From: a virus | Direction: 5' to 3' (one strand) | DNA length: 64,000 nt | IMG/VR virus record: IMGVR_UViG_3300036670_000256 | Span: 9,638-73,637 of that record | Shown: positions 2 through 55,857 of the stretch, in pieces | Position numbering within the stretch: the stretch's first letter is position 1 | Layout of the letters: every line of letters starts with the position of its first letter | The notes under the pieces: model-generated | Told to the model about the DNA's origin: nothing | Database searches by the model: none | What the model saw: the letters and a program-made list of their open reading frames with translations, nothing else | Translations under genes and position numbers: made by a program

Positions 2-3000
2 TTTTCCACTTTTTTTAATTAGATTTTGTTTTTCAATTTTTTCGACAATTTTATTTATAAATTCTCTTTTTTCTCTAGCATCTGAAAATTCATCTGGCGC
101 TTGATCTTTGTCAAAAACTTGTTTAAAATCAGGAATAATTTCATCATCAGTATTATCTTCAGTATCTAAGTTTTGATCTTCGGAAAGTTGACGAATAAGT
201 TCTTTATCTTCATCGCTTAAGTTTTCGTTTTCTTCTTGTTTAATTTTTACTAAAGCATCAATTTCTTTTTTATTTTCTTCGTAAAAAACTTTAACGTCTC
301 CTTTTGGTTCTACACCTGCAGCAATAGATTCAGCAGTTTCATCAATTGCTTTTTCATTTTTTGCATTTGTAGTTTTTGCTTCTGGCTTTTTATTTGATGT
401 AAACTTGACTTTTTTACCAGTAGCTTTATCAGTAATGTTACCATCTTTTGAAACTAATACAGTTCCTAAAGATTTAAATGGAACTGCATTTTTTTGAAAT
501 TCTGCAACTTTAGCTAAAGCTTCATTTTTGTCTTTGGTCCAGTTAACTTGTCCGTCACTATCTACATCAACGTATTCAGTATTGCCATCTTTATCAGTAG
601 CAATAACTGTCATTCCTTTTGTTTTATCTTCCGCTGTACTATAAACTAATGTGCTAGGAGTTTCTATTTCGTAATCAATAGATACAGAACCATCTGTACT
701 TGTATTTAAACTTTGACCAAAAACTTTTCTATCTATACCATCAATGTTTATTATATCATCTGTATTAGCATTTCTAAGTTCATCTAAAGGATCTACACTA
801 GTTTGATCTTGTTTGTTTATTCCTAAAACTTCTGAAATAGTACTACCAATTCCTTGAATTTTATTCCATACTTGATTTCCAAGTTTACTTAAAGTTTTTG
901 CTTTTAATTTAGCTTTTTCTAACTGATTTCTGATTTCTTCTTCCGAACGTGATTCTTGTTCTTCAGTAGTTTCAAAAGATTCTTTTTCTGTGTAAATTGG
1001 ATTTCCTTGTGGATCAATAGTTACATCATAAGAAATTGGATTTGCTTTTTTTCCAATCAATAAGTTTTTTTGATTTTCTTTAGTTTTACCAATCATATTA
1101 GCTAATGGAGTAACTTTAGATTTATAAGTTTCTACCTCTTTTTTGATAGCTGTAGCTAAATCATTTTCATCGTCAATTGTAGCTTTTAATACATCTACGT
1201 TTTTATTAAAAATTTCAGTTTCTTCATCAACTTTAGTTTGTAAATGATCTTCTTCCATAAAATTAACTATGTAAGCTTTTTTACCATTTATTTTTAAATC
1301 TTTAATTGCATTTTGTTGAGTAGATGCTTTATCATAAATGGCACCATACTTATCAAAATCTTCTTCAGTAATTATTCCTTGATCCTTAAGTCCTTTAGCA
1401 AAATCTACAAATTGCTCTCCTTTACCTTCAAACACAAGTTCTGCCATTTGCGCTCTAATATGATAATCTTGAGTAGCTTTTTCGTCTGTTCCTTTTTCTT
1501 GAAACTTACTTAAACTTTCTGATCTACTTTCAAATTTTTGAGCTATATCAGCTTGTTTATTTACTAATGTTTTTAAGTTAAAAGCACCACCGGCCATTGC
1601 TCCCATTGCAGCAGAAATAACTCTAGTAGCTTCTGAATCTTTTGAAGTGTAAAAATCCATAAACCCACCATCAAAAATTCCAAGAACTCCTTGACTAGTA
1701 TCGTAATTTTCAGTTGCTGGTCCTTGATATCCTTCTAAGCTACCATGAACATCAGCATAGCCTTTCATTTTAGACCATTCTTCGTATGTTTCTTGAACGC
1801 TTTCTTCTAATCCCTCAAAAGCCATTTTACCTCCAATAGTTGCTAATTTTTTAAACACTGGAGAAATTGAATTTACAGCTAACGCAGAACCTTTTTTTGC
1901 TAAATTTTTTGCAGCTAATTTACCGCCAAGAGTTTTTAGCATACCACCACCTTTTCCGAAAGTCAATCCCCAAGATAAAATATCAGCGGCAAAATATTGT
2001 GAATTATTTAAAAAAGTTCCGGCTGCCATTTGTCCTAATTCTTCTTCCGAAAACATTGGTATTTCTTTTCCGTTTTCGTCAAGTACTACATTTCCATTTG
2101 CATCTGTTTGAGAAACTCCTTTGTAAGTGTTGTAAACTTCTCCAGCATTAGCCAAAGAAACGCGTAAATTACTTATCAAACCTCCAGCTGTTCCTTCAAC
2201 CATTTCTCCAAAGGTTTTTGTTAAAGTACCTCTATCAGTCATTACTCTACCCAATAAACCTTTTGCTTTTCCAACTTCGTTAATCCCTTCTGCACCACGA
2301 AATGCTCCGGATGTAGTTGCTCTAAGTTCTCCACGCAAAGCACTAGTTGCTGCTTTTTCTCCAACAGCTTCTCCTGCAGCAATAGCACCCGCACGTTTTG
2401 CACCAGCTTCTATAGTTCCTTTTAAAGCTCCCTTTAATCCAGACTGAACTAAGTTTTTTACACCACCAGCGGCACCATAAGTAGCCGCAATTTCCATAAG
2501 TTGAGGTAAAAACCTACCACCATGAGTAGACCAAAATAAAGGATCGGTTAAAGTAGAAAGTTTAAACTCAGGATTTAATATTTCTTCTGGCGCCCAAGTA
2601 GTATTTTCTGCTTGCATTTGTTCGCCTTTTTCTTGTAATGCTTTAGAAACCCAGTTGCCTTCATACATATCAAGATATCCACCTGTAAAAGCAGAACCAA
2701 GTACTTGAGCAATGTTTCCATAATCTCCAATCATTTGACCTAAACCAAACATCATATTGGTTTGAGTATTTTTAACAAAACCATCATTTACAACAGATGG
2801 CGTCCATTCTGATTTGTCTTTTTCAGCAATATTAGATTCTTGAGCGGCCATGCTTGTAAGAGGATCAAAACGTTCTGCATTACGGTCGTTTAATTCTTCT
2901 GCTTTTTGCGTTGGATCACCGGACATTTCTCTAGATAAATCAGGAATTATTTCTTGATTTTTTCTTTTGACTTCGTTTTGTGCAAAAGTTTCATTTAACC

Positions 3001-3120: not shown

Positions 3121-5097
3121 TTAATACATTTTGCTGTAAATTGCTAACCACTTTTCAGAAAACCCTTTTTGTTGTTCTTCTGAATTTTCTAATATTTTTT
3201 GAATAATAGAAATATCTGAATATTGTTTGTCGTCATTTCTAAGTTGTTTAGAATAATCAGTGTTTCCTTCTAATTCTGCAGAACGCATGAATTGAGTAAA
3301 AGCTTGTTCTTTAGAACCATCTTCATATATGTTTGGATCTCCTTGACTTTGAGAGGCAGCCAAATAAAATGATTTAACAAGGTTTGCTCTATTTCCACTA
3401 TCTACATATTTTGGATTAGTAATGTAACTAGAATTTATTTCAGAACGAACATGAGAAGCTGCTTTTTTGTTTCCATTAATAATTTGTTTGTATTGTTGAA
3501 TTTCTTCTTGTTCAATATCAGTAATTGCTTTTGTGTCTGCAAATTCTCTTTTACGTTGGTCACCAGTATTTAAAATATCTGTTTCATCATCTACGTTATT
3601 TGGATCATGATAAATTGCGTTACTTGCATTATCCCAACCTATATCGTGATAAAATATATGTCCTTCTGCGTCTTTTAAAACCATAACTCTTTTTGGTACA
3701 ATTTGAGATTCACCTAAAAGTTCATTGTATTTTTCTTGTCTTTCATTATGAATGTTTTTGGTAGGATCTCCTTTCCAGTTTCCTTTAACATTATCCATCA
3801 ATAAAAAGTCTTTGTTATTTTTATCAATACCACCACCCATCATAACAATAGAATCTACTGTTAAATCATATTTCTCTCCAAATACATCATCATCATCATT
3901 ATCGGAAATTCTTTTACCAGAAGGATCAAAAAGCCTTGTTGATGCAGAAAGAGTTACACCTTTAATTACATTTCCTTCTACTGATTCTCCTAATGAAGCA
4001 CCCCAGCTTTTAGCTGCTTGAGGAATGTTTAATTTAGTGTATCTAGCACCTCTAGGTTTGTAACCATTAGCCCATAAATTACTTTTATCACCATCGTTTC
4101 CGTCAATAAAATCATCTGTAGGAACGTCGTAAACAGAACCTAAATATTGCGATGCTTGATCTCCTAATTGATCAAATACATTACTGTTCCATTCTGTAGC
4201 TTTTATTTTTTGAGGAAGTCTTGACATTATTTCTGTAAGTCCTGTAGAATGAAAAGCTTTATAGCCTTTAGAATTTGGTCCTAATTCTAATTGTTTTTCA
4301 GCAACTTCTTTTTCTTTTTTAGTAGCTGCTATTTTAGCAAGTCTATCTAAACTTTCTTGTTGAAACTTTCTGTAAGCTAAATCTCTTTGCCAATCAGAAC
4401 CTCGTCCTTTGTATTGAGAATTAGTAAATGCAATTAAATCTTCTCTACTAGGATTTTGATTTTCAGGATAGGTCATTAAATAATTACCTAAAATTTTAGC
4501 GTAATTTTCTTTATTATAAAGAATATCTTCTGTTGGAATTTCTTCATCATAATCGTACTCACTAGCTGGAGGCATTTCAATTTCTGACATTTGTCCACTA
4601 TATGTAACAATACCACCTTTGTTTTTTTCGTAGTCTTGTAAATTTGCTTTGTCTTTAGGATTTAGTAAATGACCAAAACCTTTCATTTGCATATCTACAA
4701 TTCTGTCCATATTTTTTTTGTTGTCTAAATATTGACTAGATTCTTCTGAATTGGTGATGGCGCTTTTATAATCTGCCATTACTCTATGTCCACCATTTTC
4801 TAAAAACTTACCCATATTGCCGCCAAAAGTTTTGATATTTTCACGAATACCAACAGCCATATCTTTAGCTTTTCTATTTATTTTGTCTCGATCGGGCGCA
4901 AGTAAAGTATCAGAAAATTTAGAAACTTGTTCCATATAAGCTTGTTGCTTAAGTTGGTCTTGTTCGCTTTCTAATTTTTCTTTATCAAGTTGCTGCTGCA
5001 TTACGCCAAGCATCCCAAGTTCTTCTTTTTGAGATTCTCTTTTTCTTCCGGTATCGTATAAAGCGGAATAACCCATTCCTATAGCCCAATCGTTCAT
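3121..5097 (-). CDS. Putative virion cargo/ejection protein (658 aa)
   Basis: Long helical, Q/K/D-rich ORF in the cargo position downstream of the tail stabilization gene. Confidence 0.55.
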   Translation of the reverse strand: MNDWAIGMGYSALYDTGRKRESQKEELGMLGVMQQQLDKEKLESEQDQLKQQAYMEQVSKFSDTLLAPDRDKINRKAKDMAVGIRENIKTFGGNMGKFLENGGHRVMADYKSAITNSEESSQYLDNKKNMDRIVDMQMKGFGHLLNPKDKANLQDYEKNKGGIVTYSGQMSEIEMPPASEYDYDEEIPTEDILYNKENYAKILGNYLMTYPENQNPSREDLIAFTNSQYKGRGSDWQRDLAYRKFQQESLDRLAKIAATKKEKEVAEKQLELGPNSKGYKAFHSTGLTEIMSRLPQKIKATEWNSNVFDQLGDQASQYLGSVYDVPTDDFIDGNDGDKSNLWANGYKPRGARYTKLNIPQAAKSWGASLGESVEGNVIKGVTLSASTRLFDPSGKRISDNDDDDVFGEKYDLTVDSIVMMGGGIDKNNKDFLLMDNVKGNWKGDPTKNIHNERQEKYNELLGESQIVPKRVMVLKDAEGHIFYHDIGWDNASNAIYHDPNNVDDETDILNTGDQRKREFADTKAITDIEQEEIQQYKQIINGNKKAASHVRSEINSSYITNPKYVDSGNRANLVKSFYLAASQSQGDPNIYEDGSKEQAFTQFMRSAELEGNTDYSKQLRNDDKQYSDISIIQKILENSEEQQKGFSEKWLAIYSKMY

Positions 5098-28888: not shown

Positions 28889-29175
28889 AAGATAGTTATG
28901 TTATGTTGTTTTTTAAATTCGTTCCAAGTCATTTCTTGCATGAAGTTTGGAAATATTTTTTCGTGATTACAAGATGTAGGTTCTGCTAAAACATCATTTG
29001 GATTACATTTGCAAAAATTACATTTTTTTTGAGCAATACAGCTTTTACAAATATACGCTCTAAATCTAATTTGTTCTATTTGTGTTTTTTTAAAAGGTCT
29101 GTTAGGATAGTCGTTTTTTACTTTTTCAAAAAAATCAACAAACTCTTTGTCTTCTAAGTTTAATATTAAATTCAT
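28885..29175 (-). CDS. Small Cys-rich (Zn-binding) protein between terminase and portal
   Basis: CxxC...CxxCxC...C. Confidence 0.6.
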   Translation of the reverse strand: MNLILNLEDKEFVDFFEKVKNDYPNRPFKKTQIEQIRFRAYICKSCIAQKKCNFCKCNPNDVLAEPTSCNHEKIFPNFMQEMTWNEFKKQHNITIL

Positions 29176-31412
29176 CGGTCTTGCATTCTTTTTTTCTCTT
29201 GCAGAAATATGTTATAAATAGTTGGATCAACTCCTAAAAATTTTACTTCTTTTTCAAATTCGCTTTGTCTTTTTAGAATATCAGTTTTTTTATTTACTTT
29301 GACATCAATATATTCCTTGTACTCTTGAGGGTTTAAATCTCTTTCTGGATGAAATACTTGTATTGGAGAATAATCATCATCGTAAACGTTATTCCTTAAT
29401 TTACCATCTGTATCGACGTAATAACTTCCTAAAGTTTTATCGTAATTATACATGCTTATTTCAGAAGAACCAACTTCAATATCTTCTGTTATTTCGTCAA
29501 AAATATCCATTCTGTGTAATAAGCAAATACCTAAAGTCATAGCTATATCCGTATTGCCATCGCCAAATTTAATTAGATCTAGAATTACATTTTCAAAATT
29601 ACATTTGAAAATGTTTTCTTTTACTTCTGATTTCAACATTTTAACTAGAACAGGTTTTACTTGTCCAGTCATTTTTACACCATCTTTGTTTTTGTGATTA
29701 GTAGTTCCGGCTTCTTCAATATCTGGTCTACCTTTAATATATTTATAAGCTTTAACATCGTAGAAGTATCTTAAAATATGAAATTTTGTATACTCAAATA
29801 ATATTTCTAAATCCCAATAAACAGCAAATTTTACAGCATTTTCATAAAATACATCATCATCAAAAGAACCATCGCCGCGCTCGTGTAATACTCCTACCGG
29901 TTTATTAAATTCTCTAGTTGGTCCTGAAAAACAACGATACGCCATTACGCAACCAGAAGATACTTGGTTTGTGTTTTTCTTGTCGTCGTCAACTTCTTCA
30001 TCGTAACTATCACAACCGCCAATATCGGGTTTGTAAGATAAGTGTAGAACCGATTGATTAATTGGTGATGCATCTTTCCAAACAGTTCCGTTTTCTTTGT
30101 CTTCTACAAATTTTACTTTTACGTTATGTGCAATTCTAATTTTAGTTTTTTCTTTTGTGTTTTTACATCGTTGAAGTAATCGAATAACTTCTTCCGTATC
30201 TACCCATTCTAATCTTCCTTGCAATACTGGTTCGTCAAATTGACCTAAACTAATTTCTTTTAATTGAAAGTTAAGTTTTGCTAAGTCTAAAATTCCACCT
30301 TTAGTTTTTAAGAAAACCTCAGCCGGTATCATTGGATAAGATTGAATATGTTTGATGTAAGTATCTTTAGCTTTAGAGGCTCTTTTTCTTTCTTCTAAAA
30401 TATATTTTTTGGCAACTTCGCGATCTGTAACTCCCGTTTCATGGTTAAAAAATGAAATTACTTTTCCTGTTTTTTCGTCAGGAATTCCATCACCAGGATA
30501 ATAATAATTTGCAGGAATAAATACTGGTTTCAAATTATAAGCTTCATGGTTATCCCACATTTCTTTGAAACCTTTTGCACCTTTGTCGATTTCTCCACCG
30601 GTTCCGTATACCATTGGAACACCAAACTGATTATGTCCATCGCGAAAACATGGTTCTGTTGCTTTGTAAGATGCTGTTGAATTTTCAAACAATCCCATTT
30701 CCTCAAAATACATTTTGGAATAAGAACCTCCTTCAAAAGCGGAACTATCAGCAAACATGGTTTTGATTCTCAATAAAGATTGAATACCACATTCTTTAGT
30801 TTGCTTGTTAATTAAATTTTTATAGCCTTGTTTTAATTCCTTATCGTTTTTTAAAATATTACCATTGTAATAAGCTGGATGCACATTTTCAAGTGAGAAT
30901 TTTAATTTATCATAAAACTCCTGAGCTTTATCTTCTTTACCAGCACATAATCCAATTAAATTATGTTGAAAAAATGTCATTTCATAATTTGCATCCAGTA
31001 CATTTATTTCTGACAAACCTACACGTCGAGGTTTTGTAATAATCATTCCGTAGCCATGATTTTCAGCGCCTTCCATTTCTAAAAACAACCAATGATCTAA
31101 ATCTCTATAAAATGGATTTATTGGCCTTTTTCTTTTTCCGCCTTTTGGCATACCAAGTATTTTGCAGAAGTTTAAATAATAAAAGTGCTTTCCTGTTATT
31201 CTAGGCATTCCTTTTGGTTGATATCCTTTGTAGCAATAGTAATCCATTTCATGCCAAAAATCATCGTAAGCTAAAGTACCTGGATTAAGTTCCGTAGATA
31301 ATTTTTTAATTCTTTCGTTGAATAATATTGGTTGATACAATTTAGGATTCCAGCCTGATTTTTTGCTTAGTCTAAAAATGTCTGGAATTTCTATGTTAGG
31401 GAATTGAGCCAT
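29172..31412 (-). CDS. terL: Terminase large subunit
   Basis: ITGKHFYYLNF, Walker A-like KPRRVGLS, Walker B YFEEMG, YGTGG, nuclease GGCDSYD. Confidence 0.92.
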   Translation of the reverse strand: MAQFPNIEIPDIFRLSKKSGWNPKLYQPILFNERIKKLSTELNPGTLAYDDFWHEMDYYCYKGYQPKGMPRITGKHFYYLNFCKILGMPKGGKRKRPINPFYRDLDHWLFLEMEGAENHGYGMIITKPRRVGLSEINVLDANYEMTFFQHNLIGLCAGKEDKAQEFYDKLKFSLENVHPAYYNGNILKNDKELKQGYKNLINKQTKECGIQSLLRIKTMFADSSAFEGGSYSKMYFEEMGLFENSTASYKATEPCFRDGHNQFGVPMVYGTGGEIDKGAKGFKEMWDNHEAYNLKPVFIPANYYYPGDGIPDEKTGKVISFFNHETGVTDREVAKKYILEERKRASKAKDTYIKHIQSYPMIPAEVFLKTKGGILDLAKLNFQLKEISLGQFDEPVLQGRLEWVDTEEVIRLLQRCKNTKEKTKIRIAHNVKVKFVEDKENGTVWKDASPINQSVLHLSYKPDIGGCDSYDEEVDDDKKNTNQVSSGCVMAYRCFSGPTREFNKPVGVLHERGDGSFDDDVFYENAVKFAVYWDLEILFEYTKFHILRYFYDVKAYKYIKGRPDIEEAGTTNHKNKDGVKMTGQVKPVLVKMLKSEVKENIFKCNFENVILDLIKFGDGNTDIAMTLGICLLHRMDIFDEITEDIEVGSSEISMYNYDKTLGSYYVDTDGKLRNNVYDDDYSPIQVFHPERDLNPQEYKEYIDVKVNKKTDILKRQSEFEKEVKFLGVDPTIYNIFLQEKKRMQDR

Positions 31413-32987: not shown

Positions 32988-33230
32988 TTATTCTACTTCT
33001 TCATAATTTACTGTTGAATTTTTTACTAGATTTTCTGATATCCAACCGCCTTTTGATTTTGATTTAAATATTTCGCCAAACTTTGTTTTTGAAACAGGAA
33101 AGTAATCATAAGTTTTTTTAGCAAATTCTATTCGCATTACTCCCGTTTTGTTTTCTTCATCATATTCCCAACCAACTTTGTTTACGTTAGATGAATGTAC
33201 GTTATACATTTTTCCTTTAAATTCACTCAT
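32988..33230 (-). CDS. KTSC domain protein
   Basis: VHSSNVNKVGW...RIEF...YDYFPVS...SKSKG signature. Confidence 0.85.
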   Translation of the reverse strand: MSEFKGKMYNVHSSNVNKVGWEYDEENKTGVMRIEFAKKTYDYFPVSKTKFGEIFKSKSKGGWISENLVKNSTVNYEEVE

Positions 33231-34336
33231 GATTTTTCTGTTTTAGTTTCTATAAAAATTGGCATTGACTTCATCTGTGATAATAATAATTTAATATCTT
33301 TTGTTGAAAAATCAAAATTCTTAGGTAATTGATCTATATCTAAAGTTATAACATTACCAACCACAATTCCTTTTTTGGTAATCTGCAGCTGTTCTAATTT
33401 TAAATTAAATCTAGAGAAGTTTTTATTTCCAGTTCCTCCAAATTCTTTAGCAATTTTTAATACATCTACTTCCGGTTTTGTAGTGTATAAATTTATGGAC
33501 CAACAACATGTTTTTGAATTGTAGAAATACATAAACACAAGGTCGTGTATGCTTTCAAAAAAGAAATTTTCGTAAGCTATAAAGTCTAGCTTATTTGAAT
33601 TAATAGCTATTGCTTTTAAATCATTAAAATCAAATTCTACTGAACTTGATTTTATCAATAAATCGTATTGCTTTTTTTGGTATTCTAACACATAACTACC
33701 AATACTTTTTATACTCTCAATATCGATGTTTTTTTCCCAATCATCTATATCAACTAATATATTATGTATTTGTTCTGGAGTAGATTTACTACTCATAAAC
33801 CAGTACATAGGCATTACTTCTTTTACCCAATCTTTATCCTTAATTATTTTGGTTTCTTCCGTATGTCTTAAGGTAGAATATTGTCCAATACAACTTACAA
33901 TATCTCTAGCATTTTTGCCAAGCTTCTGAGCGTAAAAATTAATCGCTATCTCACAAGATGATAGCGTTTCGGAATAATAATAAACCATATTCATTTTGGT
34001 AACTTCAAAGCATTTAATATAACTATTCAAGCTTTTTTCTCTCACTTCATATTCATTCAACTCACAATATGATATTAAATCTTCAAAGTTTCCTATAAAA
34101 TTATCTATCCAAATAAATTCTAAAGAACCTAATCCTAAAGTTTTCATTCTTTCCATTGGTAAAGAGGTTCCTACCATTACTGTCACTTTGCCTTTGTACT
34201 TCCTGGTATCTAAATCTTCTTCAAAACATAAAGGTTTTAGTTTTAAAGTATCCCCATATTGTTTTTGATGCGAATACAATACTGCTGCAGCTGTTATACT
34301 GTCTAAAATTTCTAAGTTGTAAATACAAAAATCCAT
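33227..34336 (-). CDS. DHH/DHHA1-family phosphoesterase homolog with degenerate catalytic motifs
   Basis: Motif spacing of the DHH family, but WIDNF replaces WIDHH and GGTGN replaces GGGGH. Confidence 0.7.
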   Translation of the reverse strand: MDFCIYNLEILDSITAAAVLYSHQKQYGDTLKLKPLCFEEDLDTRKYKGKVTVMVGTSLPMERMKTLGLGSLEFIWIDNFIGNFEDLISYCELNEYEVREKSLNSYIKCFEVTKMNMVYYYSETLSSCEIAINFYAQKLGKNARDIVSCIGQYSTLRHTEETKIIKDKDWVKEVMPMYWFMSSKSTPEQIHNILVDIDDWEKNIDIESIKSIGSYVLEYQKKQYDLLIKSSSVEFDFNDLKAIAINSNKLDFIAYENFFFESIHDLVFMYFYNSKTCCWSINLYTTKPEVDVLKIAKEFGGTGNKNFSRFNLKLEQLQITKKGIVVGNVITLDIDQLPKNFDFSTKDIKLLLSQMKSMPIFIETKTEKS

Positions 34337-34558
34337 TTATTGCTTTTTATTAGTTTTGGAATCAATTATTTCTTTTATTATTAAACATTCTAAATATAAT
34401 TCTTCTTCTTCATAACTAGCAAGTAAAAATTTTAAATTGATAATATCTCCCTTTGATAATTGATCTTTAAACGAATCGTATTCTGTAAATGTTTCTGTAA
34501 ATCTTTCTGCAGATAAAGTTTCTTGAAAAATTAAATCTATTTTTTCTAAAATTGCCAT
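34337..34558 (-). CDS. Small acidic protein with UVR-like hairpin
   Basis: EEEELYLECLIIKEII; ATG 34558 downstream of a promoter. Confidence 0.5.
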   Translation of the reverse strand: MAILEKIDLIFQETLSAERFTETFTEYDSFKDQLSKGDIINLKFLLASYEEEELYLECLIIKEIIDSKTNKKQ

Positions 34559-34573
34559 GTTAATTGTTTTTAA

Positions 34574-34600
34574 CAAAAATACATGAAATAACTTCAACTA
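34574..34600 (-). promoter_or_regulatory. TATTTTTG promoter plus 21-bp operator copy
   Basis: Minus strand TAGTTGAAGTTATTTCATGTA abutting TAnnTTTG. Confidence 0.6.
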
Positions 34601-34671
34601 TGCAAATTTACCAAAAAAAATAGGAACTATTTCTAATTCCTAATTTTCCGAATAATTATTAACCAAAATAT

Positions 34672-34962
34672 TTATCTGCATTCAAACCAATCATCCGATA
34701 ACATGTCTTCCGGATTTGGTATCCAACCTTCAGTAGTTACGCCATTGCAATTACACCGAAAATGTGGAGTTCTAGTTATTGTATTAAAATCACCTCTCTG
34801 AAATAAGTTTTCATCAATGTAGTCTAGTTTGCTTCCATTCGAAATATCAGTAGAATAATTTCCCTGAATCAAACTAATGATTTTATTGTGAGCATTTATT
34901 CTAGCCACTTCTTTGTTTTGTTTTAATAACTCTAAAGCAACACTAAAATTGAAATTTCTCAT
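34672..34962 (-). CDS. DUF2829 / Tad2-like (Thoeris anti-defence sponge) protein
   Basis: FNFSVALELLKQNKEVAR...GWIPNPEDMLSDDW signature. Confidence 0.75.
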   Translation of the reverse strand: MRNFNFSVALELLKQNKEVARINAHNKIISLIQGNYSTDISNGSKLDYIDENLFQRGDFNTITRTPHFRCNCNGVTTEGWIPNPEDMLSDDWFECR

Positions 34963-34976
34963 TTTATTTGTTTTTA

Positions 34977-35017
34977 CAAAGATAAAAAAAAAGCGAGAAT
35001 ATTAATTTCTCGCTTTT
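34977..35017 (-). promoter_or_regulatory. Terminator hairpin (AGCGAGAA...TTCTCGCT) followed on the minus strand by a TATCTTTG promoter
   Basis: Hairpin at 34985-35017; -7 element at 34977-34984. Confidence 0.6.
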
Positions 35018-35021
35018 AATT

Positions 35022-35339
35022 TTAAACTTCTTCTTCTCGTACTAATTCCAAAATTTCATCTTCTCGTAAAGAACATAAAGCTTCGGTTAGTCCTTCATTA
35101 TTAAAATTTTGAGAACCAAACACCGTTCCCGCGTGAGGTATGTGAGAAATTAAATCTCCTATTTTTACCCAATCAATACTTGTTCCTACCGCCAAAACTG
35201 TACCTCTTGATAACAATTTCTTCTCGTCTTTCTTTTCGATAATTCCAGATTTGTTTTCTTCATACAAACCCGAATCTTTTTCAACGTAAACTCTCAAAAT
35301 AATTTTATTTGGCGCGCATCCTACTGTCTTCTTTTTCAT
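35022..35339 (-). CDS. groES: GroES/Cpn10-like co-chaperonin
   Basis: KIILR...KSGII...RGTVLAVG...VKIGD...LREDEIL. Confidence 0.8.
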   Translation of the reverse strand: MKKKTVGCAPNKIILRVYVEKDSGLYEENKSGIIEKKDEKKLLSRGTVLAVGTSIDWVKIGDLISHIPHAGTVFGSQNFNNEGLTEALCSLREDEILELVREEEV

Positions 35340-35355
35340 AATCTAATATTAAATG

Positions 35356-35580
35356 TTATACAAATAAACTCTTAACTGCATACATGCAGCTTGTTTCTAA
35401 TTGGGTTTGTGCTAATGATATTTCTCTACCATTTTGACCGTTGTTCATAGTTTCTAATTTGTCAAACAAATTAGCATAGTCTTGTTTCAATTCTTCAATC
35501 TCTGGCTTTGCAGATGGATTGAAATTTCTTTGAACTCTTAATTCTCCTTTCGATACTGGTCTTTCGATTTTTCCACTCAT
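35356..35580 (-). CDS. Acb2/Tad1-like helical-hairpin nucleotide sponge
   Basis: FNPS...IEELK...REISLAQTQLETSCMYAVKSL signature. Confidence 0.7.
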   Translation of the reverse strand: MSGKIERPVSKGELRVQRNFNPSAKPEIEELKQDYANLFDKLETMNNGQNGREISLAQTQLETSCMYAVKSLFV

Positions 35581-35583
35581 AAT

Positions 35584-36444
35584 TTATAGTTTATTTAAAA
35601 ATTTATACAATTCTAAATTCCATTTTGCATCCGATAACGCATGATGCTCGTTTGATTTTTTTGGAAATAAAATATTATTTTTCTTTATTGATTCTACCGT
35701 TACTTTTGGCATCCCTTCCTTAAGATTTGTAGAATCATTTATCTTCATAATTTTCTGATCTAACATCTGCTTTAAATCTTTACAATACATCGGAAAACCA
35801 TTTGGCAAATTTATCATTTTTCCAAACAACCAACAAAACACTACCCAATCATAATCACCAAAATATGCGTAGAAATCTATCTCTCCCTTGAAATTAGCAA
35901 TTATCTTTCTAGTGGTTTCTATCTGATGCTTATTCTCATCATAACCCACAATTGCAAATTCATAAACAAATTCCTTTACCAATTCTGAAATCTGCTTGTT
36001 GGTCTTTCCATACCGTTCAATAAACGAACTCAAACTATGAATCGTAAATAAATCATCATGCAATCCAGAATCTAATTCTTTCTTGAATTCCTCAGCCTCT
36101 CTATTACTCAACATAATCGTATCGCAATCTGAAAATAAAAATAACTGCTTCCAAATTGGATATAATACATTATCGCGAATCCAATAAATCTTTAATGGAG
36201 GACAACCAGCTCGAATTTTCTCAGGACTTAATTCCTCTAAATCAAATCTATTCCAAGCTTCTTTTAAATTGAAATCTTTTGATACCTCATAAAACTCTCG
36301 GCCATCCTCAGAAACAATACCAATCGATATTAAATCAATTGTAGCCTTTGGTTTACCAATAATCCAATTGCCTAAACGACCTTTCAATATTAAACTACGC
36401 TCCGGAACTCCTTCTAAAAATTCCGTGTCTAAAAAATATTTCAT
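35584..36444 (-). CDS. 3'-5' exoribonuclease, DEDDh (Rv2179c-like)
   Basis: FLDTEF, LISIGIV, YDWV and HHALSDA motifs. Confidence 0.85.
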   Translation of the reverse strand: MKYFLDTEFLEGVPERSLILKGRLGNWIIGKPKATIDLISIGIVSEDGREFYEVSKDFNLKEAWNRFDLEELSPEKIRAGCPPLKIYWIRDNVLYPIWKQLFLFSDCDTIMLSNREAEEFKKELDSGLHDDLFTIHSLSSFIERYGKTNKQISELVKEFVYEFAIVGYDENKHQIETTRKIIANFKGEIDFYAYFGDYDWVVFCWLFGKMINLPNGFPMYCKDLKQMLDQKIMKINDSTNLKEGMPKVTVESIKKNNILFPKKSNEHHALSDAKWNLELYKFLNKL

Positions 36445-36445
36445 A

Positions 36446-36799
36446 TTATTCCTCTTTTTTAATTCCTATTGGAAAATCATTAAACGCATTCTTACCATAA
36501 TTATCCCCACCAGTTCCAAATATTATCGGAATATTTTTAATTCCTAAATCCCTTTTAGGAAAAGCAGCTTCCCAAGCTTTCTTAAAATCATCACGATTTA
36601 ATTCCATCGGAATTTTTAACAAAGGATTTAAACCACTAAACGAACTACCATTAACCCTTTTTTCCATATCTCTATTCATTTTTTCCGTTAACGCATCTTC
36701 ATCCGTATGCTTAAACCATAAGCTTTTAAGATCGCTAAATCCCTTAACGTTTTTAAAACAATCAGAGTCTTCACCACAAGCACTAAATAAATTATCCAT
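36446..36799 (-). CDS. Small protein containing a terminase-like FGTGG segment
   Basis: KKAWEAAFP...IPIIFGTGGD...GKNAF resembles TerL ASYKATEP...VPMVYGTGGE...GAKGF. Confidence 0.6.
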   Translation of the reverse strand: MDNLFSACGEDSDCFKNVKGFSDLKSLWFKHTDEDALTEKMNRDMEKRVNGSSFSGLNPLLKIPMELNRDDFKKAWEAAFPKRDLGIKNIPIIFGTGGDNYGKNAFNDFPIGIKKEE

Positions 36800-36803
36800 G
36801 ATA

Positions 36804-36830
36804 CAAATATAGATGAAGTTATTTCATGTA
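36804..36830 (-). promoter_or_regulatory. TATATTTG promoter plus 21-bp operator, start of the leftward arm
   Basis: TAGATGAAGTTATTTCATGTA abutting TAnnTTTG. Confidence 0.65.
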
Positions 36831-36923
36831 CCAATTTTTGAACAAAAAAAATTCTCACACGAAGTTATTGCAACAACCAAAAAAAAATAAAAAAAATATT
36901 TGCGCGGGTGTATCCACTAAACA

Positions 36924-36957
36924 ACCCCGTCTCGGAAATGAATTTCCCCGACGGGGT
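36924..36957. other. GC-rich hairpin at the divergence point of the two genome arms
   Basis: ACCCCGTC-TC-GGAAAT-GA-ATTTCC-CC-GACGGGGT. Confidence 0.7.
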
Positions 36958-37033
36958 ACTAGTGCGATAAACCACAAAAAGAGAGTCCGAATGACTCAAC
37001 AACATATTTATTAATCCATTAAAACAAATCAAA

Positions 37034-37282: not shown

Positions 37283-37334
37283 TAACGAAACAGAAAACAA
37301 TTAAAAATGTCCAAGTAATGCTTGGCTAAAACTC

Positions 37335-37703
37335 ATGAAACAGACAGCTGTATTCGTGCTTATATGCGCGGTAGGAATTGGCATTGGCGGTCACTTAGCC
37401 AGTGCCTTATTCTTCGGAATCATTACGTTAGTAGGCCTTATAGCCTTAGTAGAAAACATACCAATAATTAAATGGTTTGTCTACAAAACTAACAACTTCA
37501 TTGACGTCATGCTATTCATCCTTGCGGTGATAGCTACTGTCAAAATGGGAGTAACTATAACTGCAGCATTAACTGTTGCCGGTCTTGGTTACACCATGTG
37601 CTACGCACCTTACGTTCGACGTAAGAAAAAAGAAAACCGCGAGGTCCACTCGCAAAACAAGGTAGTCAACGAAATACTATCTAAAAATAAAATTAATTAT
37701 TAA
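37335..37703 (+). CDS. Small multi-TM membrane protein
   Basis: About 4 hydrophobic helices, basic C-terminus. Confidence 0.75.
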   Translation: MKQTAVFVLICAVGIGIGGHLASALFFGIITLVGLIALVENIPIIKWFVYKTNNFIDVMLFILAVIATVKMGVTITAALTVAGLGYTMCYAPYVRRKKKENREVHSQNKVVNEILSKNKINY

Positions 37704-37876: not shown

Positions 37877-38245
37877 ATGAAAATTAAAATGATCCTTAGA
37901 AAAGCTGGAAATGTAGTAGTAAACTCAACATGTTCCACAATTGGCGCTTTACATTTTGTAACAGACACAGCAAGTGACATCTTGCTACACGCCGAAGCGT
38001 GCATCATGCACCGCGTATATGGCGAAGACAAAGACGAATGTAAATTACGTCGATGTATTCAAACGTCAGTTTATCAAGGCCACGTTCTTGATAAGCTTGA
38101 CGCTATCAAAGATTTGAAAAATCAGGTAGCCAACAAGCTACCTTTCAAATCTAAAGAAGAATCGGAAGTTAATGAACTTCCACCTTTAGTTGTCGTAGAC
38201 ACAAAGTCCTACGACGAAATGATGTCTAACCTTAAACAAGCTTAA
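37877..38245 (+). CDS. Early hypothetical protein (paralog of 37034..37282)
   Basis: Shared H..D...AE..I..G.D..E...R..T..Q...K..AIKD pattern. Confidence 0.7.
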   Translation: MKIKMILRKAGNVVVNSTCSTIGALHFVTDTASDILLHAEACIMHRVYGEDKDECKLRRCIQTSVYQGHVLDKLDAIKDLKNQVANKLPFKSKEESEVNELPPLVVVDTKSYDEMMSNLKQA

Positions 38246-44309: not shown

Positions 44310-46856
44310 ATGAAAAAAGTATTATACAATCCGTTTCAATTATTAATCAACTTTGACGTAATTGAGAAAGATTTATTTTTACTTGGAGATTTGCATAACA
44401 TTAAATCGATGTTACCAAAATTATTTGAAACTCAACAAGAAGACGTTGCAGCTGCAGAGAATCGTTTTAAAGAAGGTAAAGGTTATCTTTTTACAAATGG
44501 AACTGGCACTGGCAAAACATACGTCGGTCTTGGTATTGCATTTAGGTTTTACACTAACAACAAAAAGAACATTATTATTGTTGTTCCTACAGATGAAAAA
44601 TCTAAAGATTGGGTTGAAGATGGTTTGAACATTGGTTTGAGTATATACAAACTTCAAGGAATACACGATGCTGGACATGAAATAACTGTTACTACTTATG
44701 CTAACTTTTATCAGAATGAAGCGATTAATAAGGTGAAATGGGATTTAGTTATTTATGACGAATCACATTACTTAGGTCAAAATGCAAATGGCGTTGAAAA
44801 TAGTTATTTGCAAAAACATAAGAACATTGCCAATCTTCCTTCTGCAGCAAGGTCTAAAGCGTTTGAACATAACGGAGTTTACGAAGATTATTATTGTGAA
44901 GATAGTGGTCTTGTAAAACAAAAGGTAAACAAAGAATTGTACGACAAAGTTTACAACGAATACATTGAAAGTACTAAAGTAGTTTTTCTTTCTGCTACGC
45001 CATTCGCGTACCATAAATCAATTAAGTATGCAGATGGAGCATTGTTTGAAATCAATGAAAAAATAATTCCGGATAAAGACACTTTTACATCATACAATGA
45101 TGGTGGTGCTTGGGAAAATTTCATGATGGATAACTTTGGTTACAGAATGAAGTACAATAAACTTACCATACCAGAAACAGGTGTGGACCAAAATTTATTA
45201 GAAAGAAGTTTCTTTGAAAGTTTTAAAGACAGAGGAGTAATGTCAACTAGACAATTAGAACTTGAGCAAGATTACTCAAGAGAATTTATAATAGTTGATT
45301 CTGAAATTGGAAAGTTTATTGATGATGGGTTAAATTTATTTCACGATACTGATTTTTCTAAAAGATATCCTAAGTTAAGTGAGTTTCATAAGAGAAAACT
45401 TAATTATTTGTTTATTAATCAATTGCTAGAATGTATTAAAGCAAAAGATATAAATGAAAGAATTAAGCAACATCTTTATTTGAATAGAAAAGTTGTAGTG
45501 TTTCATAATTATAATAACGCAAACATTACACATCCTTTTCAATTTCAAGTAAGAGAATTAATTTCTACTGATGAAGAATTTCATAAACATTCTGATGCTT
45601 TAAGAATTGAGATTTTAAAGTTTAAAGAAGAATATTCTCATTATTGGAATTTAGATTTGTCTGGTTTGTCTAACATTAGAAAAACTATCAAACAATGTTT
45701 TCCTGAAGCTAGAGAGTTTAACGGAACTGTCAGCAAAAAACTTAGAAGTAAATTTATAAAAGAATTTAATTCTGATTTTTCTATGATTGATATTATTTTA
45801 GTTCAAGTAAAAGCTGGACAAGAAGGTATTTCTTTACACGATAAAACAGGAATGCACCAAAGAGTTTTAATTAATTTAGGACTTCCTACAGCTCCGACTC
45901 AAGCTATTCAAACAGAAGGTAGAATTTACAGACAAGGTTTAAAAAGCAATGCAATTTACGAGTATGCCACAGTGCAAACTAGTACAGAAAGAATTGCTTT
46001 TGCTACAAAAATTGCTGAACGTTCTAAGACTGCTGAAAATTTGGCTATGGGTAATTTGGCTAGAGATTTAGAAACAGCTTTTAAAGAAGGCTATGCAAAT
46101 GCCAATGAAAACGAGCCAAACTTAGAACAAGGTGTTGGAGGTAAAGAATCTGATCGTTTCTTATTTACAATTAATGAGTATGAAAAAACAAAAACATTTT
46201 ATTGGAAAAGAAGAAAACGTAATTCTAAAACTAAAGCAAGAGAAGGTGTTGATTATTTTGCTACTCCTGAACCTTTAGGTTTTAAAATGGTAGAATGGTT
46301 AAAGCTTGAACCTAACCATAGATGCTTAGAACCATCTGCAGGTCATGGTGCTATTGCTAGATTTTTACCAAGCGATTGTGTTAATGATTTTATAGAACCT
46401 AGTTTTGAACTTAGTTCACAAATTGCTATTAATGCAACGGGAACTGTTATTAATAGTACTTTTGAAGATCATCACATAATTAATAAATATGAAGCAATTG
46501 TGATGAATCCTCCTTTTGGTTCTGGTGGTAGACTTGCTATGGAACATATTGCAAAAGCGTGCAAACATTTATCTACAGCACAAGGTGCTAAAGTAATTGC
46601 AATAATTCCTAACGGTTCTTCAATGCAAAAAAGACTTGATGAATTTTTTGCAGACGAAAAGAATAGAATGTTTCATTTAACTGGACAGATATACTTACCA
46701 TCTGTTTTATTTGAAAGAGCCGGAACAAACGTTTCATGTAGAATTATTAGAATAGAAACAGCTAGAAGTTTACGTTCTGAATACAATGAAATTGAACTTT
46801 ACGATTGTGCAACAATCGATGAATTCTTTGATAGAATAGAACATTTAGATTTTTAA
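44310..46856 (+). CDS. SF2 (strawberry-notch-like) helicase fused to a C-terminal N6-adenine DNA methyltransferase (DarB-like)
   Basis: GTGTGKT, DESH, SAT, AGQEGISLHD, QTEGRIYR; MTase LEPSAGHG and NPPF. Confidence 0.85.
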   Translation: MKKVLYNPFQLLINFDVIEKDLFLLGDLHNIKSMLPKLFETQQEDVAAAENRFKEGKGYLFTNGTGTGKTYVGLGIAFRFYTNNKKNIIIVVPTDEKSKDWVEDGLNIGLSIYKLQGIHDAGHEITVTTYANFYQNEAINKVKWDLVIYDESHYLGQNANGVENSYLQKHKNIANLPSAARSKAFEHNGVYEDYYCEDSGLVKQKVNKELYDKVYNEYIESTKVVFLSATPFAYHKSIKYADGALFEINEKIIPDKDTFTSYNDGGAWENFMMDNFGYRMKYNKLTIPETGVDQNLLERSFFESFKDRGVMSTRQLELEQDYSREFIIVDSEIGKFIDDGLNLFHDTDFSKRYPKLSEFHKRKLNYLFINQLLECIKAKDINERIKQHLYLNRKVVVFHNYNNANITHPFQFQVRELISTDEEFHKHSDALRIEILKFKEEYSHYWNLDLSGLSNIRKTIKQCFPEAREFNGTVSKKLRSKFIKEFNSDFSMIDIILVQVKAGQEGISLHDKTGMHQRVLINLGLPTAPTQAIQTEGRIYRQGLKSNAIYEYATVQTSTERIAFATKIAERSKTAENLAMGNLARDLETAFKEGYANANENEPNLEQGVGGKESDRFLFTINEYEKTKTFYWKRRKRNSKTKAREGVDYFATPEPLGFKMVEWLKLEPNHRCLEPSAGHGAIARFLPSDCVNDFIEPSFELSSQIAINATGTVINSTFEDHHIINKYEAIVMNPPFGSGGRLAMEHIAKACKHLSTAQGAKVIAIIPNGSSMQKRLDEFFADEKNRMFHLTGQIYLPSVLFERAGTNVSCRIIRIETARSLRSEYNEIELYDCATIDEFFDRIEHLDF

Positions 46857-54941: not shown

Positions 54942-55824
54942 CAGCGAAAACAGTTTTAGTTTTGAATCTGCTTCTCCTAAACTTAGCACTGGCAGAGTGT
55001 GTTTAATTGATGCTGATTATGTGAAATATATAATTACATCTAGATTACATAAAGAATATGAAAAATCTCAAATTAGTGGAATTGCAGAAATTTATGTAAA
55101 AGAAGAACCTGTAATTGCTTACACAAAAGAATGGGTAAATGATTGGTTTATGAAAATTGAAGATCCGATTGTTTTTTGTTTTTCTGGAAAATCCTATAAC
55201 ACATTTCGTATGCATATTGCTATGGAAAAAGAGTACAAAGGAAACAGAAAAAAAGATTACAGTGAGTATCCTACAAAAATGGAAGACATGAATACTATCA
55301 TGAAATACATTCAAGATAATTATTCGACTTTATTGTTTTCTGAATTAGAAGCTGATGATGTTGTTTCAATGTTACAAGACAAAGAAAATACTTATATCGC
55401 ATCTAAGGATAAGGATTTAAAACAAGTACCAGGATATCATTATGATTGGGAAAGTAATTCTATTTATGAAATTAGTAACGAAGATGCTTTGTATAATTTG
55501 TCGTTACAATTATTAATGGGAGATAACACAGATAACATTCCTGGTATTAAAGGAATGGGAGAAGTTGGTGCTTTAAAATTTTTGTCGGAAGTAGTAGACC
55601 AAAATGGTAAACTAGCGCCAAAAAGTTTTATTGGAAAAATATTGAAAAAATACCAAACTACTTATGGTATATTCAAAGGAACTGATGCATTCACAGAAAT
55701 GTGGATGTTACTAAAAATGAGAGAAAATCGAGGAACAGAGTTTTTAAAAAAATATCAAAGGATGTTTGACTTAAAAGAATCGATGTTATTGGAAATTCAA
55801 AAAAGAAAACTTTTAAATCAATAG
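54934..55824 (+). CDS. 5'-3' exonuclease / flap endonuclease (T7 gp6/T4 RNase H-like)
   Basis: LIDAD, YKGNRK, EADD, DKDLKQVPG, GDNTDNIPG. Confidence 0.92.
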   Translation: MFNSENSFSFESASPKLSTGRVCLIDADYVKYIITSRLHKEYEKSQISGIAEIYVKEEPVIAYTKEWVNDWFMKIEDPIVFCFSGKSYNTFRMHIAMEKEYKGNRKKDYSEYPTKMEDMNTIMKYIQDNYSTLLFSELEADDVVSMLQDKENTYIASKDKDLKQVPGYHYDWESNSIYEISNEDALYNLSLQLLMGDNTDNIPGIKGMGEVGALKFLSEVVDQNGKLAPKSFIGKILKKYQTTYGIFKGTDAFTEMWMLLKMRENRGTEFLKKYQRMFDLKESMLLEIQKRKLLNQ

Positions 55825-55857
55825 ATGAAATTATTTCATCTAACTATTGTAAATTTG
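55822..55857 (+). promoter_or_regulatory. Perfect 21-bp operator palindrome plus TAAATTTG promoter element
   Basis: TAGATGAAAT-T-ATTTCATCTA (55822-55842); TAAATTTG (55850-55857). Confidence 0.65.

Follow-up and report, generated by a model that had tools for sequence, protein, structure and literature searches.

Why would a phage keep, at the head of an operon that also holds anti-defence genes, a small stand-alone protein ending in a stretch that resembles part of its own packaging ATPase? The question arises with P0001, a protein of 117 amino acids (aa) encoded in virus record IMGVR_UViG_3300036670_000256. We analysed 64,000 nucleotides (nt) of this record (positions 9,638 to 73,637; hereafter the window, in whose numbering all coordinates are given), that is, 64 kb out of a 73.6-kb record that carries direct terminal repeats. 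An initial annotation had proposed that the C-terminal third of P0001 copies a segment of the large terminase subunit (TerL) lying just after Walker B, and that the protein is either a decoy for terminase-sensing Avs immunity or a dominant-negative packaging regulator. The structural half of that interpretation is supported, now with relatives at hand: P0001 is a stand-alone small protein, its core is a copy of the GTGG segment of TerL, and it lies in an anti-defence neighbourhood. In all likelihood P0001 is a real coding gene and the most divergent and shortest full-length member of a protein family, the FGTGG family, whose shared 45–50 residues or so are homologous to a segment of the TerL ATPase. 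The gene has the coordinates, strand and length first given for it. Its parts and the corresponding parts of TerL are as follows.

36446..36799, minus strand: mini-protein gene P0001, 117 aa plus stop, first gene of a minus-strand operon
36449..36601, minus strand: conserved TerL-like core, residues 67–117 (LNRDDFKKAWEAAFPKRDLGIKNIPIIFGTGGDNYGKNAFNDFPIG...), which carries both the family membership and the TerL match
36602..36730, minus strand: hypervariable middle, residues 24–66, without counterpart in other family members
36731..36799, minus strand: N-terminal 23 residues, specific to this phage lineage and invariant across three alleles (one synonymous change only)
29172..31412, minus strand: large terminase subunit TerL, P0002, 746 aa, in the same operon (phrog_6681 'terminase large subunit', E 2.1e-51)
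30513..30674, minus strand: TerL segment, residues 247–300, ASYKATEPCFRDGHNQFGVPMVYGTGGEIDKGAKGFKEMWDNHEAYNLKPVFIP, aligned by the family core (hidden Markov model and hhalign)

The N-terminus of P0001 reads MDNLFSACGEDSDC and its C-terminus reads ...FKKAWEAAFPKRDLGIKNIPIIFGTGGDNYGKNAFNDFPIGIKKEE.

The FGTGG family and its match to the large terminase

Relatives of P0001 surfaced only through the loci of a neighbouring RNase H-like gene. Through this neighbour (126 of 151 candidates confirmed) 80 viral loci were retrieved, and their six-frame open reading frames (ORFs) were searched with P0001. Weak matches, all in the same motif, came from small ORFs that precede the RNase H-like gene at loci L007, L031/L032 and L038 (E 0.055–0.61 among 5304 ORFs). 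A jackhmmer search seeded with P0001 converged on L031/L032, L007 and L038 (3e-12, 4.6e-12 and 0.0032), and a four-member profile run against a collection of 5.8 billion proteins returned nine proteins at E <= 0.1 among 3214 candidates, namely P0001 and P0005–P0012, with lengths of 70–235 aa. Within this family P0001 matches P0010 over residues 67–99 (BLASTP E 1e-8, 18/34 identical), P0011 matches P0006 across 103 residues (BLASTP E 9e-10), and the family hidden Markov model (HMM), in which P0001 itself is included, finds the P0001 ORF of the window at E 5.2e-16.

Searches from P0001 outwards gave no further relatives. A near-length word-index search returned P0001 alone, and phmmer against 1.84 billion representatives returned three proteins at E <= 0.001, P0001 itself with P0003 and P0004; the latter two are repeat proteins that we judged spurious on reading and rejected. 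No match was obtained by tblastn against 50,697 phage records. Viral contigs gave 307 pattern matches to P0001, none confirmed, and no exact 20-mer of its core; genome contigs of 185,579 species gave nine pattern matches, again none confirmed. When the family alignment was used against viral contigs, P0001 as first row produced 101 pattern matches and no confirmed locus, and P0012 as first row produced four loci, three already known and one a TerL. The same family search of metagenome contigs yielded two loci, both TerLs.

The initial claim that P0001 lines up with TerL does not stand for the two sequences taken as a pair, but it stands at the level of the family profile. BLASTP of P0001 against TerL aligned only IPIIFGTGGD with VPMVYGTGGE (5/10 identical, 10/10 positive, E 0.018 for the single comparison), and the Smith–Waterman score of 43 was reached by 181 of 2000 shuffles of P0001, so that the pairwise likeness is at chance level. 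The HMM built from the nine proteins was then run, with all filters off, against six-frame ORFs from the window and every locus, 5681 in total. All five TerL ORFs were the top non-family matches (E 1.2e-6, 2.8e-5, 3.4e-5, 2.6e-4 and 2.9e-4), the next match having an E of 0.086. In these alignments HMM positions 50–106 fall on TerL residues ~250–315 and include a second block, VFIP, ~20 residues after GTGG; three blocks, a.eP.f, FG.P.I.GTGG and VFIP, occur in matching order and spacing.

Profile–profile comparison was made by hhalign between the family and 28 TerLs drawn from the 199 TerLs of the clade found at E <= 1e-10. The family matched TerL with a probability of 91.9% (E 7.1e-7, 46 columns), placing P0001 residues 74–110 on TerL residues 247–300, and with P0001 left out the match was 94.3% (E 9.6e-8). 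Controls failed: reversed TerL reached at most 0.5%, and the best of 20 column-shuffled TerL alignments scored 19.6 as against 56.9 for the real one. A significant profile match to TerL, which the initial annotation had suggested looking for, is thus found. Reciprocally, the first non-TerL matches of a TerL HMM were family members (E 0.004 and 0.0074), with P0001 absent among the matches listed. Searches of viral and metagenome contigs with P0012 by tblastn also picked up the TerLs of a second clade, 740–756 aa long, reading IGIPIIFGTGGD and followed by portal-sized ORFs. The TerL stretch originally quoted does lie where it was placed (residues 247–284, nt 30561–30674), and of the 35-residue alignment drawn between it and P0001 about 20 residues were recovered and nothing beyond. 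We conclude that the shared segment very probably extends from just after the FEE (Walker B) strand, via the strand ending in GTGG, to the next strand.

In nucleotides, the core matches the TerL of the window at 21/30 positions, and at 4/10 third positions. The likeness is kept in the protein and not in the DNA, which indicates an old and maintained relationship rather than a recent copy; on the same figures we rejected the idea of a DNA-level copy or homing site.

The conserved core of the family can be written as WEAAxP(K/R), 7–10 residues, (G)(I/K)(P/V)(M/I)I(F/I)GTGG, ~20 residues, VFIP. Six of its columns, P, I, G, T, G and G, are invariant in all nine members (I-x-G-T-G-G), and the other columns average 25% identity. 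Longer members have in common, from the N-terminus, the blocks MAKRDKKK, (I/L)AE(L/M)NR...DPD, xLWEAAxP(K/R), (G)IPMIFGTGG, VFIP and ESGPFP, followed by a variable tail. P0001, which agrees with the family core at residues 76–98, retains just MELNR, WEAAFPK, IPIIFGTGG and DFPIG, a possible remnant of VFIP, and has a 66-residue N-terminal part of its own. Its sequence is that of an atypical, truncated member.

Annotated TerLs of crAss-like phages (75 records matched) show 21–25% identity with the TerL of the window, so that 'crAss-like' applies to the latter only distantly. With high confidence we regard the FGTGG family as accessory proteins of this distant crAss-like clade. Invariant positions among the 28 clade TerLs are K127, R129, G132 and S134, within a Walker A motif of the KPRRVGLS type, F236, E237 and E238 (FEE), and G270, T271 and G272. 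From the order of these motifs, KPRRVGLS, then FEE, then GTGG, we infer that GTGG is ATPase motif III (the C-motif). The TerL profile found no relatives at E <= 0.01 among PDB sequences (one unrelated phosphatase had an E of 0.029), and this assignment is not anchored on a solved TerL because no PDB chain is close enough in sequence.

No Pfam terminase family recognises the TerL of the window (its one match, RRP14 at E 0.15, is spurious). This TerL has 199 homologs in metagenomes; the TerL of this clade is structurally uncharted. Four of the homologs (P0070, P0095, P0106 and P0121; ~1100–1133 aa) carry intein/LAGLIDADG Pfam domains. The N-terminal intein junction reads ...(V/L)YG|C in all four, and the C-terminal junction reads ...HN|TGG in P0095 and P0121, whose inteins are 360 and 364 aa long; a regular-expression search for the C-junction pattern did not find it in P0070 and P0106. 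The position of the intein, between G and TGG, fits GTGG being the most constrained site of TerL.

As the initial annotation had it, P0001 is without Walker A, Walker B and nuclease domain, both on reading the sequence and in searches of Pfam and NCBIfam, which gave no family. No Walker A or KPRRVGLS-type motif could be read in P0001 or in any other member, the hhalign match covering TerL 247–300 only, and the region of the Walker B FEE was left unaligned by both hhalign and HMMER. Most of the longer members conserve a DPD whose spacing would roughly suit FEE, and it is a matter of speculation that the two are equivalent; P0001 has no DPD. There is also no C-terminal RNase H-fold nuclease domain, P0001 having 117 aa and the family 70–235 aa as compared to ~700 aa or more for a TerL. 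Since Walker A, the catalytic acidic pair and the nuclease domain are all lacking, the family cannot be a packaging ATPase, and P0001 is not a TerL because, of four defining features, it has only one, the strand and GTGG with the following helix and strand.

Known domains gave no other identity for the protein. P0001 matched no Pfam family at E <= 1, and thus neither PF24729 nor PF11195, and no NCBIfam family. Two PHROG matches, phrog_9983 'tail protein' (E 0.0085, 16.4 bits) and phrog_33473 (E 0.059), were dropped because they were not repeated in relatives. The name QueC, given to P0006 by one source, was not confirmed, as Pfam and NCBIfam held no QueC match at E <= 1; the family motif TGG(N/D/H)xx is without the Asp-Ser of the SGGxDS PP-loop. 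A PglD_N match of P0005 (E 0.024, 15.6 bits) fell under its cut-off of 23.4 bits and was likewise not confirmed. Both labels are generic strand/Gly-loop look-alikes. P0001 also contains GGDNYGKN, which comes close to a P-loop; the family does not conserve it, and it was treated as chance.

Structure prediction, also suggested at the outset, gave no confident fold for either of the proteins modelled by AlphaFold2. With P0001 as a single sequence the mean predicted local distance difference test (pLDDT) score was 37.6, and with P0012 as target and the nine-row family alignment it was 52.4, with a predicted template modelling score of 0.18 and no sheet. The ESM Atlas model had a pLDDT of 0.39, and its feature matches (<=0.82) and template modelling scores (<=0.42) were all below the thresholds of the tool. 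Such low pLDDT values may reflect disorder or folding on binding. Prediction of a complex between P0001 (family alignment) and TerL residues 90–420 (28-row alignment) scored 0.00 in two runs made without controls, a result that speaks neither for nor against binding.

Sequence evolution and genomic setting

Two sister alleles of P0001, P0133 and P0134, keep a full-length intact ORF and are 90–91% identical to it, giving three alleles in total. Their amino-acid changes are confined to residues 24–66, apart from P81S in one of them. Substitutions in P0001 and two neighbouring genes were counted between contigs of sequencing runs X2 and X3 and the window. X2 and X3 carry the same allele and are not independent, and the counts are small; pN/pS is the ratio of non-synonymous (pN) to synonymous (pS) differences.

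P0001 gene: 15 substitutions in 351 nt; 13 non-synonymous, 2 synonymous; pN/pS 1.44; pS 0.031
RNase H-like gene: 8 substitutions in 858 nt; 3 non-synonymous, 5 synonymous; pN/pS 0.14; pS 0.031
Acb2-like gene: 4 substitutions in 222 nt; 3 non-synonymous, 1 synonymous; pN/pS 0.70; pS 0.024

Codons 24–66 (129 nt) hold 13 of the 15 substitutions in the P0001 gene, 12 of them non-synonymous. This clustering is significant against the rest of the gene (Fisher p 7e-5) and against the synonymous rate of the neighbours (Poisson p 3e-4). The TerL-like core differs from the X2/X3 allele by one substitution in 153 nt; together with the invariance of I-x-G-T-G-G in the nine members, this bears out the suggestion that homologs would keep the motif. 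A similar pattern is found between phages. Among the three other phage records with a member (G001–G003), TerL is 77–82% identical and the RNase H-like protein 57–59%, while the family protein is 31–34% identical and 102–192 aa long. In this family an invariant core is set in very fast-changing surroundings, an arms-race-like evolution.

P0001 was said to head the gene cluster containing Acb2- and Tad2-like genes, and this is what we find: it is first in a long minus-strand block, 36800–37033 is a divergent intergenic region, and both neighbours are recovered by their Pfam profiles. Its stop codon is separated by 1 nt from the start codon of the next gene. Downstream of P0001 the operon continues as follows, with three ORFs without family assignment between the DHH gene and TerL.

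35584..36444, minus strand: DEDDh-type RNase H-like / Rv2179c-like 3'-5' exonuclease, 286 aa (phrog_2259 E 4.8e-42, PF16473 E 3.3e-6)
35356..35580, minus strand: Acb2/Tad1-hairpin protein, 74 aa (PF24729 E 4.8e-9, 36.7 bits, cut-off 27)
35022..35339, minus strand: GroES-like protein (phrog_3188 E 1.8e-5)
34672..34962, minus strand: Tad2-like protein, 96 aa (PF11195 E 1.9e-9, 38.4 bits, cut-off 25)
33227..34336, minus strand: DHH phosphoesterase-like protein, 369 aa (phrog_4771 E 9.3e-10; no Pfam match at E <= 0.01)

The stretch 33227–36444 on the minus strand is a dense run of genes directed at immune signalling nucleotides, in which a single operon pairs two genes for sponge-type proteins with two for phosphoesterases/exonucleases.

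Synteny ties the FGTGG family to the RNase H-like gene, of which viral contigs hold 126 relatives. In G001–G003 the family gene likewise precedes RNase H-like and Acb2-like genes, and the TerLs of these phages are 48–50% identical to that of the window by tblastn and 47–48% by global alignment; TerL was looked up just in member-holding records, which says nothing on the frequency of the family in the clade. At L007, L032 and L038 the family gene comes before an RNase H-like gene and the gene of an Acb2-hairpin protein (PF24729 E 3.7e-8, 2.9e-9 and 1.1e-9, respectively), and KTSC-like, GroES-like and GroEL-like ORFs come after. A small 'MECKGFD' ORF stands before or after the family gene in relatives, and L007 has extra small ORFs. 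At L038 the family gene is separated from the RNase H-like gene by a GIY-YIG homing-endonuclease-like ORF (3216–4016, plus strand; PF01541 E 4.4e-8), which runs into the start of the RNase H-like gene. The position ahead of the RNase H-like gene is plastic, a hotspot for mobile and accessory genes.

In one member, P0011, encoded on a 1.5-kb contig, a single 235-aa polypeptide contains the family core followed by an Acb2/Tad1 hairpin (PF24729 E 1.2e-6, 29 bits, cut-off 27). A 237-aa protein of L032 (4786–5499, plus strand) carries the Acb2/Tad1 hairpin at its C-terminus, and its N-terminal part, which has no family assignment, looked partly Tad2-like by eye. With Acb2 as the C-terminal module in both proteins, module fusion appears to be common at the locus.

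The region upstream of P0001 contains a recurrent element.

36809..36830, plus copy: 22-nt element with palindromic core ATGAA-N5-TTCAT, 10 nt upstream of the P0001 ATG; candidate operator/promoter element

Further copies lie at 34580–34601 (minus strand, 1 mismatch) and 55821–55842 (plus strand, 2 mismatches), making three copies in the window with at most 2 mismatches where none is expected from 100 shuffles. All are intergenic and lie upstream of a gene, by 10 nt (P0001 ATG), 244 nt (DHH gene) and 36 nt (an ORF at 55878), and they do not all face the same way with respect to that gene. The element might serve a phage regulator as its operator. Read on the minus strand, the element precedes TATATTTG, a look-alike of the Bacteroidota -7 promoter box. 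Sigma-70-like promoter matches did not exceed shuffles (3 found, mean 3.9). Thus, of the 'own promoter/operator' first attributed to P0001, the operator part gains from the recurrent element and the sigma-70-like promoter part does not.

Three terminator-like GC-rich hairpins, against 0.7 expected, occur in the AT-rich divergent intergenic region at 36925–36997 and 37311–37325 (both minus strand); they sit upstream of P0001 on its own strand, which is odd for an operon head. A scan of the intergenic region for RNA found no tRNA and no Rfam family; the sole Rfam candidate, SAM-III, was rejected (E 0.59; 17.9 bits, gathering score 45; match inside a coding sequence). Two divergent genes, 37335–37703 (plus strand, small membrane-like) and 37877–38245 (plus strand, '...LHAEA...'), have by-eye counterparts in L007 at 1067–1384 and 1820–2125 (both minus strand). 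As the counterparts hold the same relative position, this comparison by eye suggests that the clade may have kept the divergent promoter region.

Kin genes of the phage match those of Cellulophaga phages and one TerL homolog is labelled Flavobacteriaceae, which suggests a Bacteroidota host. Elsewhere in the window an 848-aa protein (44310–46856, plus strand) matches phrog_10691 at E 7.3e-287 over just part of its 3925-position profile; it has helicase-like and methyltransferase-like sub-matches and may be a fragment-sized relative of giant phage proteins. Among the five sequencing runs found, no RNA dataset was listed from which expression could be read.

Proposed function and rival explanations

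Decoys derived from or mimicking the trigger of a defence are a general concept in phage counter-defence, a harmless copy occupying the sensor. TerL is such a trigger: in the available text of Evans et al. (2026, PMC13601566) it is sensed by Avs1–3 and by Upx. That P0001 is a decoy for some terminase sensor is, in our judgement, possible, and we propose it tentatively. P0001 would serve as a surrogate of TerL core strands, acting through protein–protein interaction as a non-activating decoy that occupies a host sensor of the large terminase. Its cistron is the first of the operon, and it would be made ahead of TerL. The invariant strand–GTGG unit would be the bait, and the hypervariable middle and variable termini would form the arms-race surface.

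Which sensor might be concerned depends on what each of them reads. According to the same text, Avs3 recognises active-site residues and bound ATP of the folded terminase, and Avs2 wraps around the folded ATPase domain, with an ATP as a bridge (PMC13601566). Avs looks a poor fit as the sensor of P0001 because Avs2 and Avs3 take in a folded ATPase, whereas the stretch shared by the family is ~50 residues long and has no confident AlphaFold2 fold. For Upx, that text reports that the TerL ATPase domain alone is an activator, and that AlphaFold 3 models with an interface score (ipTM) of ~0.8 have Upx threading the disengaged core strands beta1, beta4, beta5 and beta6 by beta-augmentation; whether Upx catches nascent terminase is a question raised by its authors, and one active Upx tested came from Hydrobacter penzbergensis (PMC13601566). 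Upx may fit better than Avs, which is our own inference and not a result, and both this preference and the narrower claim that P0001 is a decoy of a Upx-type sensor are put forward with low confidence. Hydrobacter is a Bacteroidota genus.

On such a mechanism, an unfolded polypeptide with the GTGG strand and the next strand would be a competitive ligand of a Upx-like sensor. Without the Walker A strand, binding without activation might result, and jamming would leave the activating geometry incomplete. The neighbouring chaperonin genes would cut the time that TerL itself spends unfolded. It would then be the first counter-defence built from the sensed molecule itself, an unfolded TerL fragment jamming a Upx-like sensor of unfolded or nascent strands, a claim we consider doubtful. 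Full-text literature searches found no terminase-derived decoy, Upx inhibitor or terminase-based phage countermeasure.

Several observations weigh against this proposal. P0001 is without the MAKRDKKK, DPD and ESGPFP blocks of its family, and compared alone with TerL by hhalign it matches weakly (31.6%, E 5e-4, 12 columns). The helix that follows GTGG in TerL (xIxKGxKGY) is highly conserved among TerLs and not in the family, so that the family does not track the TerL surface past strand and loop. Nine family proteins were found as compared to 199 clade TerLs; the family search used a word-index method that misses divergent proteins, and so few members imply that the family is either dispensable or too divergent to detect. 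A pN/pS above 1 over 15 changes would also be expected from relaxed constraint or from one recombination patch, and low pLDDT may be a mere effect of a shallow nine-row alignment. On the side of the sensor, the threading of strands by Upx is itself an AlphaFold 3 prediction and not a solved structure (PMC13601566), and the strands numbered beta4–beta6 in that paper need not be those of the GTGG segment. A fragment with TerL strands could equally trigger a sensor as block it, and the TerL-like proteins Ksap1, Ksap2 and vs.8 are described as activators of Avs2 (PMC13601566).

Other readings of P0001 divide according to whether the likeness to TerL matters for its function. It might not matter if P0001 were an anti-defence or host-takeover protein with a target unrelated to terminase sensing, for which the strand–loop–helix of TerL is a reused scaffold; in one variant it could provide a phosphate- or nucleotide-contacting loop and work with the Acb2, Tad2, DHH and DEDDh proteins on immune signalling nucleotides. 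The operon, with its two sponge-type proteins and two phosphoesterase/exonuclease genes, is in line with this, as are the Acb2 fusion in P0011, the C-terminal Acb2 domain of the 237-aa protein of L032, the fast evolution, the fact that Gly-rich strand–loop units bind phosphates in many folds, and even the unconfirmed QueC name of P0006 and weak PglD_N match of P0005 (E 0.024). We nevertheless hold this reading to be unlikely: Pfam, NCBIfam and PHROGs lend no support to a nucleotide-binding fold, QueC and PglD_N were not confirmed, no fold is predicted with confidence, and the significant similarity is specifically to TerL and reaches the second block, VFIP, at matching spacing. If the likeness does matter, P0001 might instead act on TerL, a TerL-like fragment that binds TerL, the portal or the small terminase subunit during or after folding and holds the ATPase and nuclease inactive until proheads are ready, or that tunes motor assembly as a dominant negative. 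This regulator would be made in the same transcription unit and orientation as TerL, ~5 kb upstream of it (likewise in G001), its conserved part copies the core of TerL itself, and the nearby GroES-like (window) and GroES/GroEL-like (relatives) genes hint that TerL folding might be a local theme. A core packaging factor should, however, be slowly evolving and clade-wide, and here identity is 31–34% as compared to 77–82% for TerL, pN/pS is 1.44, lengths range over 70–235 aa, and nine members face 199 TerLs. The fusion partner is Acb2 and not a packaging protein. The copied strands lie buried within the folded ASCE (additional strand, catalytic glutamate) domain, so that folded TerL offers no obvious docking site; altogether a regulator of packaging seems to us rather improbable.

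Two further explanations deny either the descent or the function. If the core were a generic hydrophobic strand and glycine-rich loop, a Rossmann-type, PP-loop or P-loop unit, the family would be unrelated to TerL by descent, and the chance-level pairwise similarity (181/2000 shuffles), the 12 columns aligned by P0001 alone, the look-alike labels QueC and PglD_N and the reciprocal TerL-to-family E of just 0.004–0.007 would be expected. Such convergence is made very unlikely by the profile–profile probability of 92–94% (E 1e-7 to 7e-7, 46 columns) with clean negative controls, by three blocks matching in order and spacing, and by the TerLs of two clades being the only significant non-family matches, no other family having been matched in Pfam, NCBIfam or PHROGs. 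A decaying relic of a duplicated or ectopically copied TerL, carried for example by a homing endonuclease, functionless and open by chance, is to our mind the least probable of all. It would suit the pN/pS of 1.44, the mutation-dense middle, the lack of a detectable fold, the position of P0001 as the shortest full-length member, and the homing elements around, namely the GIY-YIG gene after the family gene in L038 and the inteins within G|TGG of TerL in four homologs. However, decay should be even, and the core has one change in 153 nt as compared to 13 in the adjoining 129 nt, while the middle changes faster than the synonymous rate of the neighbours (Poisson p 3e-4), unlike a neutral sequence. 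The I-x-G-T-G-G core is invariant in nine members whose other columns average 25% identity; blocks specific to the family (MAKRDKKK, DPD, ESGPFP and DRNK) are conserved among members and absent from TerL; the ORF is intact in three alleles with a 1-nt gap to the next gene; and no DNA-level identity exceeds what the protein requires.

The decoy reading matters because the large terminase is one of the main cues by which bacteria recognise tailed phages (Avs1–3, Upx), and the FGTGG family is a natural minimal TerL-like protein, with ~50 conserved residues, an operon of Acb2, Tad2 and phosphoesterase genes, and arms-race speed. If P0001 blocks a sensor, it would reveal the part of TerL that the sensor needs, would give direct access to the question of whether unfolded or nascent TerL is what Upx reads, and would bring a new logic to counter-defence, a bait made from the trigger. 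If it acts on TerL instead, it would be a new kind of packaging regulator.

Comparison with known systems

The closest known parallels are vs.8 of phage T4 and the proteins Ksap1 and Ksap2. As described in the available text of Evans et al., vs.8 too is an accessory protein apart from TerL, homologous to the ATPase domain of the phage's own TerL, found in one lineage and connected with terminase sensing; it differs in keeping Walker A and Walker B, in resembling the whole ATPase domain and in activating EcAvs2 (PMC13601566). In contrast, the FGTGG family keeps ~50 residues around motif III, with no Walker A and no confident fold. Ksap1 and Ksap2, non-terminase activators of KpAvs2 (Bechon et al. 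2024, PMC11564622; as described in PMC13601566), are likewise small lineage-restricted phage proteins with a terminase-ATPase-like secondary structure, but they are folded, with a central sheet of 4–6 strands and flanking helices, and they are triggers and not inhibitors. An anti-defence role for vs.8, Ksap1 and Ksap2 was raised by the authors, who in that text acknowledge the function of these proteins as an open question (PMC13601566). Set against these descriptions, the FGTGG family is not a member of the vs.8 or Ksap groups, having neither Walker motifs nor a whole-domain fold.

With the sponges Acb2 and Tad2, P0001 has in common the operon, the small size, the fast evolution and one fused family member (P0011), although it is without sequence similarity to either (no Pfam matches). 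With the ATPase domain of crAss-like TerLs, the family shares at the profile level the succession a.eP.f, FG.P.I(F/Y)GTGG, helix and VFIP. These TerLs are ~725–750 aa long, whereas the family proteins have 70–235 aa, are without Walker A, FEE and nuclease, and evolve several-fold faster. Among stand-alone terminase-ATPase-like phage proteins, the FGTGG family is thus a fragment-type variant.

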